From the NCBI RefSeq assembly GCF_988243305.1, contig NZ_OZ547136.1: 64,000 bases of DNA. The stretch is one strand, 5' to 3'. Shown here in pieces: positions 52,001-64,000 of the stretch. The stretch's first letter is position 1. Each line of letters opens with the position of its first letter. A program made the position numbers.

Positions 52001-55000
52001 GATCTTGGCTTCTTACCTGGAGATATCGCAGAAAAGTTTGCTCCCTATTTTCGTCCGGTCTACGACGTGCTGGTCCGGCGCTTAGGGGCTTCCTTTATGC
52101 AGTACTGCCTGCGACCGGAAATAGGGAAGGTGGAAATTGCGCCGTTCGCCTATATGCGTGGACGTACCTTTGAAAATGCAGTCGTCATTCTTGACGAGGC
52201 GCAGAATGTGACTGCCGCGCAAATGAAAATGTTTTTAACCCGCCTCGGGGAGAACGTGACGGTTATCGTCAACGGTGATATCACGCAATGCGATTTGCCT
52301 CGCGGCGTGCGCTCCGGATTAAGTGACGCGCTGGAACGTTTCGAAGAAGATGAAATGGTCGGGATCGTCCGATTCGGTAAAGAGGATTGCGTACGTTCGG
52401 CACTTTGCCAACGTACGCTACATGCATACAGTTAAGTGTATTATCGGCGCAGAGCCCGGGCGAACCGGGCTTTGTTTTATTTCATTAACAGCAAAGACTT
52501 TCACTTCAGGTTAACGTTCTGGGGGGCGACTTTGAGCGTGTTGATAAGCTGAAATGAATTCTGGTTTAGATACTTTTACCAGGCATTTTTCGTCATAGCA
52601 CGCGACCAATGTAATGCCGCCAGCGCGGAGAGTTTTTTGCCTATCTTTTTCCAGCCATTCAACCTGTACAGGAGGTCTGGTGCCAATTTTGCGTATGAGG
52701 TTTAATCAACAATGGGCCAAAATTTGACTGACTGATTAACACCGAATATATTCTCCTGATTTTATTTTTTAGGGATAATATTAAAAATATAAGGTTAATC
52801 TTAATTAAATTTTTGGCTAATATTGTGTGTTGTTATTTTTTGTGGACGGCAAGCCGCAATGGCAAAATAGGTATGGTTGTAATAATCAAAACATGATACT
52901 AACTATATATAGATCGTTGAATTGTTGGCATGTAACTCGCTACAGCGAGTAGCGTTAGTAATGAAATATAATCAACATGGATAGGTGAAGATTAATTATG
53001 AGCTTTATGGTTTTTGTAACTTGTTTGACAATTGCATTTGTCGCCGGTTTTGCTGTTGCCAGAAAATTGACACTCCGAAAAGTTGCCTCATCGGTAATCA
53101 TCACTAGATCGCAACCAGTCCCTTCCTCTGCAACTTCCCCTGCTGCTAAGGCGTCGACAAGGAGCTATACACCGCAGAAAACCTATCGTGACTCTCGTTG
53201 GCAAGAACGAGATGAGTTGTTCCAGGGAATGGTTGCCGAAGGTATTTTATTGGAAGGAAAAGAGTGGTTAATTACGCGTTGTGAAAAAATTTATTTTGAT
53301 AATCTGGAGAAATGGTTTGGACATTCTTGTCATATCCATTGCCAGGTCTCTCTGGGGCGCTTGATCAACTTTCCAGAACAACCCGAGTTTAGCGAAGAAG
53401 AAAGAAAGCGTTTCTTTGCAATTTATAATGGAATGGCAATGGATTATGTTCTGGTTTCAAAGAAGAACAATAAAATAGTCTGTGTTATTGAGCTGGATGA
53501 GCCGAGTCATGAAAGGGCAGATCGCATTATTCGTGACCGTTGGTTGAATACGATTATGACTATTGCACGGGTGCCTTTTGTACGAGCTTCTGTCACTAAA
53601 TTGGATGAAATCCCTCCGGTCTGGGATACCCGTGACAAAATTCGCCCATTAGCCGCGGCGACAAAGGGTGAACCGTTGCATTAACTAAGTACCCCGGTCA
53701 GGGCTTCTCATCTCCCCCGGTGTGTGCAATATACGAAAAAAAAGCCCGTACCTTCGTACGAGCTCTTCTTTAAAGATGGCGGTGAGGGGGGATTGACTCG
53801 CTTCGCTCGCCCTGCGGGCAGCCCGCTCACTGCGTTCACGGTCTGTCCAACTGGCTGTCGCCAGTTGTCGAACCCCGGTCGGGGCTTCTCATCCCCCTGT
53901 GTGTGCAATATACGAAAAAAAAGCCCGTACCTTCGTACGAGCTCTTCTTTAAAGATGGCGGTGAGGGGGACCGCCTGAAATAAATCTGACTTAATCCAGG
54001 GGTGTTATATAATTTCATTATAAACAATGTATTACACTTTTTGTTGTCCGATATTATCTAATGTATTCTTAGTGAAGCGAGAGACTAATGGCATACTGGA
54101 TGGCATACCAGAGTGACGGGAATTAGCGTATGGCAGTATTGACGGATACGAAAGCAAGACATATCAAACCTGATGACAAACCATTGCCCCATGGGGGAAT
54201 TACCGGACTGACCCTTCATCCTTCTTCAGTAAAGGGGCGGGGGAAATGGGTTTTTCGTTATGTAAGTCCGGTGACACAAAAAAGACGTAATGCTGGATTG
54301 GGAACTTACCCAGAGGTCAGTATTGCTGAAGCTGCACGTACTGCCCGGATAATGCGAGAGCAACTTGCTGCAGGTGATGATCCTCTGGAGATTAAAAAGG
54401 CTGAATCTGAGAAAGTCGCTATCCCAACATTTGCCGATGCAGCCAGGCGTGTACATGCAGAACTGTCTCCTGGATGGGAAAATCCAAAGCATGTAAGGCA
54501 GTGGTTATCGACGCTTGAGAATTACGCGTTTCCTCAACTGGGAGCAAAAACGCTGGATTCGATTACGGCTGCGGACGTGGCAGAAACACTGCGTCCAGTC
54601 TGGTTAACCTTATCAGAAACGGCAAGCCGGGTTAAACAGCGCATTCATGTTGTTATGCAGTGGGGATGGGCGCACGGTTTTTGTGTAGCAAATCCTGTTG
54701 ATGTGGTTGACCATTTGCTTCCTCAGCAGACAAGAGGACGTGATGAACACCAACCCGCAATGCCCTGGAGGCAGTTACCGCTTTTTGTGGCGACCAGTGT
54801 GTATACCGATGAACCTTATAATGTTACCCGCGCACTGTTATTAATGGTGATACTTACAGCAACTCGCTCGGGCGAAGCCAGGGGAATGCGCTGGGCTGAA
54901 ATTGATTTTCATAAGCGGGTATGGACTATACCTGCAGAAAGAATGAAAGCTAGGCTACAGCATCGTGTTCCTTTATCCCGGCAGGCTATTTACATTCTGG

Positions 55001-61000: not shown

Positions 61001-64000
61001 AGAGTGTTGCTCAGGATATTGTCGGCTTTAGTCTGAGGTGAGGTGGGGCCTTCATTGTTTTCGTGTTCAATAAATAATTTAGGTTAATTAGTATTATTAG
61101 TGGAAGTTATGTGATCTGTTATGTTGTCTTGTACGCACTTAACACTGGTTACGTACCGGAACACTATTAGAGTATGTTATGGCTCTGTTACAGTTTATAG
61201 GTATGAAAAAATATAATCTTTCCTGTATGAAATAATATTCTTATGGTGTGTGGGGTATGGTCTGTATACCATCATTTTTATGGTGAAGTTAAATATCTGT
61301 AGAGGCCTTAAGCTGGGTCGCTGTTTTTACTTAATGGTACAGAAGTATTAATAGCGGTGTTGCCTGTGGCTACCCGATACTGGCTTTTGTGAATGTCAGA
61401 TTACTTCCTGTAAGTGATTGAATGGTACTTCCTTAAACTCAATTCTATGAGGTGTGTTTTTACCATTGTAATTCGTACTGGTCCTCAGTTTAAGTGAGTC
61501 TTACTGTACTCTGAAATATTACCTCTTTGGAGTAATGAGGTAATACGAAACAGTTTTATCAGGTTGTCTGTGCTGCTGGTTACCTCGTTTATTAATGCCG
61601 CGGTACGGCGTTTCTGTACTCTCAGTATTTATGTAATTCCACCTTCCTGTAACTTTTATAAAGTAAGGACTATAAAATGTATAATGCTAATCCCAATTAC
61701 GAAATGGACTTCATGATTCTGAAAGACGTGAATGAACACATGGAAGGTCTGTTTCAACGTTTTTCTAAACTGTTACCTTTCAGAATTGATTTTGCCTACA
61801 GGAAAGACACGCCCAGTTTTGGTCATTCCTGTAGGCACAGTATGTGTATTGAAATGCACCGCTTACTTAGTGAAACCCAAACGATGCTGGCGGGATATTA
61901 CTGGGTAATGGAATATACGTCAAACAAGGGACTTCATATTCATTTTATCGGCTACTTGGATGGGCAACGTCACAAGAAATTTTATCGGATATCCAGGCAA
62001 CTGGGAGATATCTGGAGTCGGATCACGGAAGGGGAGGGTTATTTTCACCTGTGCAGTACTAAAGACAAATACTCGGTGCGTATCGATCACGTGATTCACT
62101 ATAGTGATAAGTCTGCGGTAGACGGTTTACGTTACGCCCTTAGCTACCTGGCTAAACAGGATCAGAAAGAACACGGTATTATTCTGGGCCGTAGCAGGCT
62201 TCCCGAAAAAAGCAACCGGGGCCGACCACGACATAACTGAATTACAGTTGTATTAGGTATTAAAATTAAGTTTCTGTAAGTTGTTGGGAGGTGCTTGAGT
62301 TAATAGGCAGAAGAGGGCGGGGCGCTTTGTCATCAGTGTAGGGGACCCGAATTTCTGCCGTGGTACCTCAGTGGATCGGATACAGGTAACGAATATGGTT
62401 CATAAATCTGACAGTGATGAATTAGCTGCACTGAGGGCAAACATAACTTGAAGCTTATGGGATTGAATGGCGACGTAAACCGCAGAGTCCTGTGCAGTGC
62501 GTTTCCGTATTATCCACGGATGAGAAAGTTGCGTTATTTTGTCGACTGTTTCGCGGGCGTGATGATGTATGGGCCCTTCGATGGGAAAGCAAAACCAGCG
62601 GCAAATCAGGGTACTTGCGGGCCTGTGCTAACGAATGGCAGCCGGGAATAGCGGTAAACTCCGGATAAAATGTGGGGACTGCGCTCACCGTCAGTTGATC
62701 CCTGTATCTGATCTCATCATCTACCACTACACGGTTTAACGGGGCCGCGTCATCTCGGCGTTGCCCGATAAATTCTTTTCTACGTATAATAACCAGAATG
62801 AACGTGTAAAACACCATAGTATTCAGAACTATAAACATCGAAACCTGCCATATTGACCAGAATAAATGACCTTATTTTTACTGAAATTTAAGGAGAACAC
62901 CGTTGGAAGTAGAAATGTGGGATGGTGGCTTACAAGAACAGGAAGTATTGGCTATCGAGAAAATAAAAGCTGCTTTTTCAGTCAACGTATCTAAGCCTGA
63001 CAAGCCTTTCCGTAGCGGTTCAATTAGTGAGCAGCTAAAAAGCTATGGTTTTATCGGCAATGAAATGTTCCCTTGGAAAGGTTATGCAGGTTTTCGATTT
63101 GTTGAGGCAAAAAAAGAGGGGGAATTCGATTTAGTTATTGTAACACACTGCAACGTGATCATTGTTGAACTGAAAGACTGGAACCATCAGCCTGTAACCG
63201 CACGCGGAGATACTTGGTTTAAAGGCGATAAGAACATGGGGCGCTCGCCAGTAAGCGTGACTCGTAGCAAAAAATTCATGCTGGACAAAAAACTCAAGCG
63301 TCTGGTAGACCGTTTTACGAACAAAGGCTATATCCCGATTGTTCATTTTTTTGTTGTGATGACCGGCAATGCAGATTTCAGCGCGCTGCCGGAGGAACAA
63401 CGGCGCCATACGATCTCGTTAAAAGATTTCCTGAAGTTTGCCGATCGCGGGAGCTTCAATAACTATTTCAAACCGCACCCAGCTACCAAGGTTCTTAACA
63501 AGGATTTCCATCTTTTCGATGATTTGTTCCTAGGGCCTCAGACGGCACCAAAAGCCTTGAGAGTTAATGGCTATGAAGCTAATGATATGATTTTCGAACA
63601 TCCTAAAAAGGTGTATCGAGAATATCTGGCAAAATCTGAGATATCAACGAACAGCGAAGCGCTACTCAGAGTATGGAATTTTAGAAATATAACGGGAACG
63701 AAAGCGAATACCCCGGAAGGACGAGCTCAGATTGTTTCACGTGAGCGCGAAGTGTTACAGCACATCAATCACCAGAATCGTGACCTGTATAACCACTGTC
63801 TCAGGTCTTTGACGAGTTTTCAGAAAGACGAGGTGACGGCCGAGTATAGCGAAGTCTACGAAGTTCCGCCGGGTCATGTCCGGTTTAATGAGTTTATCGG
63901 AAAATATGGTAAGAACTTTTCTGATATGGACCGCTTGAATGTGGTGAAACTGCTCATTGCAAAGTTTAGTGATCTCCATGAGATGAAAATTGCGCACAGG

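Follow-up and report, generated by a model that had tools for sequence, protein, structure and literature searches.

Gene content and attachment site

A stretch of 64,000 nt of Escherichia coli DNA (contig NZ_OZ547136.1, assembly GCF_988243305.1; hereafter, the window) was analysed with regard to the integrative element that it carries beyond phoH. Positions 53956–64000 belong, with high confidence, to a large genomic island that occupies the 3' end of serX, a tRNA-Ser gene, and make up its left arm, on the integrase side. Behind a 14-bp attachment (att) core, the arm encodes in order a P4-family integrase, a 605-aa protein on the minus strand (designated X), a pseudogene of the insertion sequence (IS) family IS1, an AlpA-type regulator, a fragment and then a full copy of a DUF3987 (yfjI) gene, a spacer free of open reading frames (ORFs), a 187-aa Gp2-like protein, a remnant of iee and the start of mkoA (Table 1). 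The ORFs of int, X, alpA, yfjI and the Gp2-like protein are all intact. A preliminary description of this DNA had already recognised the series of integrase, minus-strand ORF, AlpA, DUF3987 protein, ORF-free AT-rich segment and Rep-like protein, and each of these was recovered at or near the positions reported there; the IS1-family pseudogene, the DUF3987 fragment, the truncated iee and the mkoA start were absent from it.

The left boundary was defined by aligning the window to the unoccupied serX sites of two strains, PEC1003 and K-12, and to the distal island junction of E. coli MLI121. The window follows the empty-site sequence through the 14-nt core TGGCGGTGAGGGGG, which corresponds to the last 14 nt of serX in reverse complement, and diverges into island DNA after position 53969, so that island DNA starts at 53970. 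The boundary thus lies about 160 bp upstream of position 54130, where the island had previously been placed to begin. In MLI121, the other end of the island meets the same core, which continues into the body of an intact serX. No tRNA gene was detected in the window by ARAGORN, the boundary holding just the last 14 nt of serX. The search for an attachment site and a tRNA gene that had been advised led to serX, by way of the core on the left and the intact gene at the right end of the MLI121 island, and alignment with reference genomes disclosed both flanking direct repeats and empty-site alleles. The right boundary, as anticipated, is beyond the window, the far core of MLI121 being read about 80 kb away. 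The 14-bp core is identical to the published direct repeats of the O islands OI-43 and OI-48 of strain EDL933 and of the Shigella island SRL-PAI, the integrases of which are reported to be 99% identical to each other (PMC3064760).

The core occurs twice in the window, against 0.02 copies expected by chance. Positions 53713–53790 and 53892–53969 are 99%-identical copies of the serX terminator plus TGGCGGTGAGGGGG, at a spacing of 179 bp, and belong to RtT-like units, each of which has at its end the terminator of serX and a pseudo 3' tRNA-Ser end containing the 14-bp core. An Rfam match to RtT was obtained at 53777–53911 on the minus strand (43.5 bits, E 5.7e-6), and RtT is annotated by RefSeq in other strains. 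K-12 has three units of ~180 bp, PEC1003 has two annotated units and the window has about one and a half; because the same units are present in these two strains, they are native chromosome and part of the serX locus. For the same reason, the two copies of terminator plus core were rejected as relics of tandem islands. The additional cores in RtT-like units could act as secondary att sites.

The window integrase shows 99.8% nucleotide identity to O157 integrases, 96% amino acid identity to the integrase of locus L009, an island that occupies the same site and has its genes in the order of SRL-PAI, and 34% identity to IntA of CP4-57. AlpA is 52% identical to K-12 AlpA and 80% identical to AlpA of the SRL-PAI-order island, in which it occupies the position of rox (PMC6980539). 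The DUF3987 protein is 41% identical to K-12 YfjI; its relatives in phage records are few and distant (22–25% identity in long matches), and those with an annotation are named helicase or primase/helicase. The spacer that follows, with a strong hairpin after yfjI, gave no Rfam match at E ≤ 0.1 and contains no iteron-like repeats.

The 187-aa protein had been described as an HUH Rep-like protein. An ORF with an H-I-H motif that aligns with the HYH of K-12 YfjJ stands at this position, it is named "inovirus-type Gp2 / YagK/YfjJ" in RefSeq, and it shares 90% identity with the 187-aa ORF that takes the place of orf5 in the SRL-PAI-order island (orf5 according to PMC6980539); its Pfam matches are weak (REP_ORF2-G2P, 1e-3; YagK_YfjJ_C, 0.18), and the Rep function thus stays putative.

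Several scars are visible within the arm. At a locus 99.5% identical to the window, RefSeq labels the segment between X and alpA as an IS1 family transposase with a frameshift and an internal stop, and the broken ORFs are visible in the window; O157 and the ST73-like strain clone D i2 have this scar too. An imperfect duplication of ~467 bp (58838–59172 against 59340–59639, 73–78% identity) spans the promoter region of the DUF3987 gene and its 5' end; it is kept in O157 and ST73-like strains and is probably the trace of a recombination event that joined two related modules. Ahead of the DUF3987 fragment, the 9-bp repeat GCTATTGTC is present in six copies in the window, in three in MLI121 and strain 3090, and in two in O157 and clone D i2. 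It could be a protein-binding site. Clusters of this GCTATT 9-mer were absent from the other modules examined and are specific to the arm type of the window. The repeat is also found at 59355–59385, upstream of the full DUF3987 gene, and an inverted repeat containing GCTATT is also located upstream of yfjI in CP4-57.

Table 1. Features of the serX island arm and of its chromosomal flank in the window.
Feature	Position	Strand	Basis or remark
efeB	49777–51048		
phoH	51371–52435		
DUF2726 gene, 228 aa	52998..53684	+	Pfam DUF2726, 1.5e-18; chromosomal flank, outside the island
Native RtT-like units 3' of serX, one partial and one full (~179 bp)	53692..53955	-	Chromosomal flank
Left att core, direct repeat TGGCGGTGAGGGGG, 14 bp	53956..53969	+	Junction alignment; published repeat
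P4-family tyrosine integrase (int)	54130–55332	+	Pfam Arm-DNA-bind_3, Phage_int_M, Phage_integrase; NCBIfam PRK09692; phrog_1
X, 605-aa all-alpha protein	55519–57336	-	31–34% GC; divergent to alpA; hypervariable cassette
IS1-family transposase pseudogene, between X gene and alpA	~57531–58270	+	RefSeq annotation of 99.5%-identical locus
AlpA/Rox-type regulator or recombination directionality factor, 102 aa	58436–58744	+	PF05930, 7e-19
9-bp tandem array, six copies of GCTATTGTC	58853..58905	+	TRF score 106; upstream of DUF3987 fragment
5' fragment of second DUF3987 gene, 65 aa	59007–59204	+	Repeats D1/D4, 73–78% identity; phrog_2373, 1.6e-6
YfjI-family DUF3987 protein, 483 aa, helicase-like	59405–60856	+	PF13148, 6e-84; phrog_2373 (DNA helicase), 2e-62
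ORF-free AT-rich spacer	about 60857–61676	.	About 37–38% GC
YagK/YfjJ / inovirus Gp2-like protein, 187 aa, putative HUH-type Rep	61677–62240	+	Weak Pfam matches
Truncated, frameshifted iee (IS-excision enhancer) remnant, residues 24–118 of 786	62447–62730	+	tblastn
mkoA 5' part, 362 codons, Mokosh type I	62915..64000, runs off window	+	tblastn

Family, cargo and mobility of the island

The island is very likely a member of the family that includes Shigella SRL-PAI, O157:H7 OI-43/OI-48 (SpLE1/TAI) and PAI-CFT073-serX. Like other islands of the serX/serW family, it has this insertion site with the 14-bp repeat (the right core being read in MLI121) and an SRL-PAI/OI-48-type P4-family integrase beside the cryptic ser'X copy. 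Additionally, the order int, alpA, DUF3987/YfjI, YagK/YfjJ typical of CP4-57-like islands is present at one end, the YfjJ-like assignment being weak; the description of the element as a CP4-57-like integrative island thus agrees with the Pfam matches and the comparisons with K-12 proteins.

The closest complete genome is that of E. coli MLI121, which matches positions 52400–64000 (11.6 kb) at 99.5% over the full length. Its island spans the interval from phoH to serX, ~80 kb, and is closed by the same core in the intact serX. Its cargo comprises mkoAB, an enterotoxin-like gene, malX, remnants of iro, a chaperone-usher fimbrial cluster that includes a gene for an AfaD-family invasin, a type I restriction-modification system with DarTG, and Ag43, with YeeU/CbtA at the end. 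The integrase region was found at ≥93% nucleotide identity in 1299 of the 5426 complete E. coli genomes, usually in one copy, and the whole arm (55400–62300, at least 80% covered) in 906 of them, about a sixth, with two copies in EDL933. The arms of O157:H7 and clone D i2 share the order int, 605-aa ORF, IS1-family pseudogene, alpA, DUF3987 fragment, yfjI and Gp2-like gene, with the same scars as the window and with different cargo behind the arm. The locus is therefore a rediscovery of one of the best-known island sites of E. coli and Shigella: the kind of island and its family are already known, and nothing in it is out of the ordinary except a single uncharacterised, hypervariable gene of the core module.

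In OI-48/OI-43 of O157:H7 (SpLE1, the tellurite-resistance and adherence island, at serX/serW), the repeat, site, arm order and scars are the same as in the window. The two differ behind the Gp2-like gene, where O157 has an intact gene for a 786-aa protein followed by ter/ure/iha cargo. This protein, with an archaeo-eukaryotic primase (AEP) and a helicase, has been identified as the IS-excision enhancer IEE (PMC9943667; bioRxiv 10.1101/2023.06.07.543989). In the window, just residues 24–118 remain, with 88% identity to the O157 protein by tblastn; nucleotide homology to O157 stops at 62727, and Mokosh follows. The 362 visible residues of MkoA are 100% identical to residues 1–362 of MkoA of MLI121, the full protein of which scores 2206 bits against PADLOC MkoA, with MkoB (503 bits) coming next. 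Type I Mokosh comprises a kinase-like domain with an Upf1-like helicase and a phospholipase D (PLD) nuclease partner (bioRxiv 10.1101/2022.05.11.491447). On these matches, the cargo of the window would start with a Mokosh type I system, MkoB being read in MLI121 past the window end, and mkoAB appears to have taken the place of most of iee, the gene that O157 has at this point. Such a replacement may affect phage sensitivity and IS dynamics.

SRL-PAI of Shigella flexneri (serX; int, rox) has the same att core and integrase family, and was compared through the SRL-PAI-order island L009. Its orf1 to orf6 encode int, DUF3987, rox, a product of unknown function, Gp2 and Gp2 (PMC6980539). The arrangement is inverted with respect to the window (int> <DUF3987 <rox X>), and in contrast to Int, AlpA/Rox and the Gp2-like protein, DUF3987 and X are just 26–29% and 32–33% identical to those of the window; the cargo of SRL-PAI consists of antibiotic resistance and fec genes rather than Mokosh. 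PAI-CFT073-serX and PAI-UTI89-serX are located at the same site (PMC7545054). The same arm is present in clone D i2, compared in place of CFT073, and the downstream blocks of MLI121 (enterotoxin-like gene, malX, iro remnants, Ag43, YeeU/CbtA end) are those of the PAI-serX islands, but in clone D i2 the Gp2-like gene and a 16S-methyltransferase remnant have no Mokosh between them. CP4-57 of K-12 (ssrA; intA, yfjH, alpA, yfjI, yfjJ) shows the same order and strands as the window followed by a defence locus, and its distal end resembles that of MLI121 (GTPase, DUF932, antirestriction, RadC/JAB and a YeeU/CbtA-type toxin-antitoxin system). It differs in its att site and in the core, which is oppositely oriented to int, whereas int of the window is distal to the intact tRNA gene; moreover, YfjH is not homologous to X, and YfjJ shares just the HUH-like motif.

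Mobility can be outlined from the literature on the family. SRL-PAI, at serX, is excised in an int-dependent manner (PMC7545054), and precise excision of OI-43 and OI-48 was measured in about 2e-3 and 2e-4 of cells, spontaneously in culture and without a helper phage (PMC3064760). By analogy, the window integrase would recombine the two 14-bp repeats, with precise excision in about 1e-3 to 1e-4 of cells. In SRL-PAI, the AlpA-like factor Rox is reported to stimulate excision, and the AlpA homologue of the window may be a directionality factor or an activator. Together, the YfjJ/Gp2-like Rep and the helicase-like DUF3987 protein would make up a replication module of the excised circle, either vestigial or transient, and the attP of this circle is expected to read ...GCTTATAATC-core-ACCGCCTGAAAT... 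if the far end matches that of MLI121.

Some points weigh against this account of the arm as the head of a large mobile island. The right end is beyond the window and the best complete match is 99.5%, so that size and cargo past 64000 are predicted from relatives. The scars (IS1-family pseudogene, duplicated DUF3987 fragment, truncated iee) imply that part of the module may be non-functional. The roles of AlpA, DUF3987 and YfjJ in excision and replication are proposed by analogy, and the Rox result of SRL-PAI comes from another arm arrangement. Finally, the assignment of the 187-aa protein to Rep/HUH depends on weak scores.

The scars lead to one alternative, in which the element is an immobile fossil: a decayed, vertically inherited CP4-57-like remnant of which the cargo alone (Mokosh and beyond) still matters. 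In favour of it, O157, ST73-like and other lineages have the IS1-family pseudogene, the DUF3987 fragment and the spacer in common, iee is truncated in the window and IS remnants are scattered along the MLI121 island. However, O157 strains with the same scars belong to a lineage in which precise excision has been measured (PMC3064760; in a different O157 strain), five ORFs of the module are intact, as said, and the very different cargo behind the arm across phylogroups points to repeated transfer or recombination. The fossil explanation is considered very improbable.

The preliminary description had assigned the element to satellites, as similar to phage-inducible chromosomal islands (PICI). 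In this alternative (PICI, P4-like or PICMI-like), a helper phage would induce alpA, and excision, replication by DUF3987/Rep and packaging in helper capsids would follow. The resemblance arose because the arm supplies int, alpA and DUF3987. PICI comprise five components: an integrase, a regulator (alpA, merR or stl), a primase-replicase, a capsid-morphogenesis gene and a small terminase (PMC10085698). The window arm has the integrase and the AlpA regulator; for the primase-replicase, it has the DUF3987 helicase-like protein and the weak Rep-like ORF, with no intact primase domain and with the AEP gene iee truncated. With this, three of the five PICI core components could be counted, and int, alpA and DUF3987 are the trio used to detect phage-inducible chromosomal minimalist islands (PICMI; PMC10803314, PMC10085698), elements of about six genes next to fis, with int, alpA and a DUF3987/DUF5906 primase, in which the expression of alpA alone triggers excision (PMC10803314). 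The clustering of these genes at one end with an adjacent defence gene is also shared with PICI and PICMI (PMC10085698, PMC10803314); defence systems are common in satellites, and Mokosh stands directly after the module.

Against this, the window disclosed no gene for a small terminase, capsid morphogenesis, psu/delta/sid or any other packaging function, and no packaging or capsid genes are annotated in the 80-kb MLI121 island. For the arm proteins, no PHROG head or packaging family was matched except weakly by the P-loop of the MkoA helicase domain, which resembled terminase large-subunit families. With respect to P4-like satellites, just int and alpA are present, and there was no PHROG or NCBIfam match to psu-delta-sid, epsilon or the alpha primase-helicase. 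With respect to PICMI, the gene trio is present, but the site is serX, the element is of tens of kb and no fis is nearby. The islands headed by this arm are about 60–113 kb (complete genomes; PMC7545054), several times the median of ~10 kb of P4-like satellites (PMC10085698) and above the phage genomes seen (44–50 kb). A satellite-sized sub-element was rejected, no further TGGCGGTGAGGGGG core being found inside the ~80 kb of the MLI121 island. Moreover, the module holds an IS1-family pseudogene and gene fragments, the published excision of OI-43/48 occurred without helper phage, and the window island is accompanied by no helper-phage evidence. A satellite is thus as improbable as a fossil. The module is taken to work like the excision and replication front end of satellites, and the element, a large serX island, is not filed as a satellite.

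The divergent 605-aa protein

Protein X is the one part of the locus without a ready explanation, and may be new. It gave no match in Pfam, NCBIfam, PADLOC or PHROG. A word-indexed search retrieved just E. coli copies with at least 91% identity, one cluster comprising 8897 sequences, and an exhaustive phmmer search against 1.84 billion representatives yielded 34 matches, about 20 of them full-length or nearly so with 25–35% identity. The AlphaFold model (17 sequences) is confident and entirely helical, with a pLDDT (predicted local distance difference test) of 84 and a pTM (predicted template modelling score) of 0.84; in Foldseek searches of AFDB50 it matched just uncharacterised proteins from Enterobacterales, Aeromonas and Burkholderia. 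X was rejected as a homologue of YfjH of CP4-57, for which BLASTP gave nothing and hhalign a probability of 0.06.

The genomic context of X was compared in the window and in the 10 distinct homologues, down to E ~5e-4, for which it was retrievable (loci L007–L025). In all 11 contexts, the X gene is divergent to alpA-DUF3987 and about 60–250 bp away from it, usually with YagK/YfjJ also present, while the orientation of the X-alpA-DUF3987 unit relative to the integrase varies. The opposite-strand gene, which had been taken for cargo, is therefore a constant though hypervariable partner of alpA-DUF3987 and not random cargo.

Pairwise identity of X was 28–39% in all pairs compared. Between the window and L009, X (32–33%) and DUF3987 (26–29%) are both divergent, while Int, AlpA and Gp2 are 80–96% identical, and because of these values a co-evolution of X with DUF3987 was considered. 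This was rejected by the comparison of L013 with L015, in which X is 39% identical while AlpA, DUF3987 and YfjJ are 92–93% identical (DUF3987, 92%). In related modules, nucleotide homology is lost 16–97 nt into the 5' end of X; its return could be seen in a single pair (L024 against L015), at the X stop codon.

The divergent position in 11 of 11 contexts, the 28–39% identity against 92–93% in neighbouring genes, the sharp edges of homology and the lack of a recognisable domain or solved homologue led us to consider X, with low confidence, as a module-specific sensor or specificity factor under diversifying selection. X could sense, for example, a phage or host signal gating the expression of alpA, by analogy with the Stl repressors of Staphylococcus aureus pathogenicity islands (SaPIs). 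It is possible, although doubtful, that X represents an undescribed, functionally essential, all-alpha part of CP4-57/SRL-type modules, similar to tetratricopeptide repeat (TPR) proteins, which would give the alpA-DUF3987-YfjJ unit its specificity or its sensing function; X could otherwise be a module-linked anti-phage sensor. The position of this hypervariable family is conserved across islands of Enterobacterales and Aeromonas, and it is a cheap experimental target for AlpA-controlled island regulation.

Related alpA-DUF3987-YfjJ modules of other Enterobacterales (L008, L013, L015, L019, L022 and L024) are flanked by varied defence-type genes: a SMODS/SAVED pair similar to cyclic oligonucleotide-based anti-phage signalling systems (CBASS), type I restriction-modification, CHAT, Abi_alpha/Abi_C, SLATT with GAP1-N1 and a DO-GTPase, and a DUF2726-helicase fusion. 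This suggests that modules of this type commonly head defence islands.

The chromosomal flank between phoH and serX

The GC content of the core genes in the window is 50–55%. It drops to 36–42% in the DUF2726 segment and to 31–34% across the minus-strand ORF at 55.3–57.5 kb, and is then near 37–47% to the window end. The drop after phoH had been read as part of the element; it was confirmed, but its first stretch (52500–53700) is the separate DUF2726 gene, not island. This low-GC gene stands in place of pgaABCD-dgcT-ycdU between phoH and serX and is a marker of a pga-less allele of this interval. The segment 52640–53690 is present in 1044 of the 5426 complete genomes, at one locus, and the allele was seen both with and without a serX island.

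As reported previously, pgaABCD is absent from the window, whereas in K-12 it directly follows phoH. The island had been thought to replace the locus downstream of phoH, but strain 3090 has the order phoH-pgaDCBA-dgcT-IS3-ycdU-RtT and then the same arm, clone D i2 still has pga and dgcT directly to the left of it and O157:H7, differing in this from the window, keeps ycdU at that position, while PEC1003, with the order phoH-DUF2726-RtT-RtT-serX-ghrA, is pga-less and has no island. Since all four combinations of pga state and island state exist among strains, the loss of pga and the island are two independent differences from K-12. The loss of pga, and with it of the biofilm polysaccharide poly-N-acetylglucosamine (PNAG), is thus a separate common allele and is not to be blamed on the island.

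Additionally, a strong Rfam match to Ysr251 (Yersinia small RNA 251) was obtained at 52237–52430 on the minus strand, antisense to the 3' end of phoH, with 192.8 bits against a gathering score of 100.

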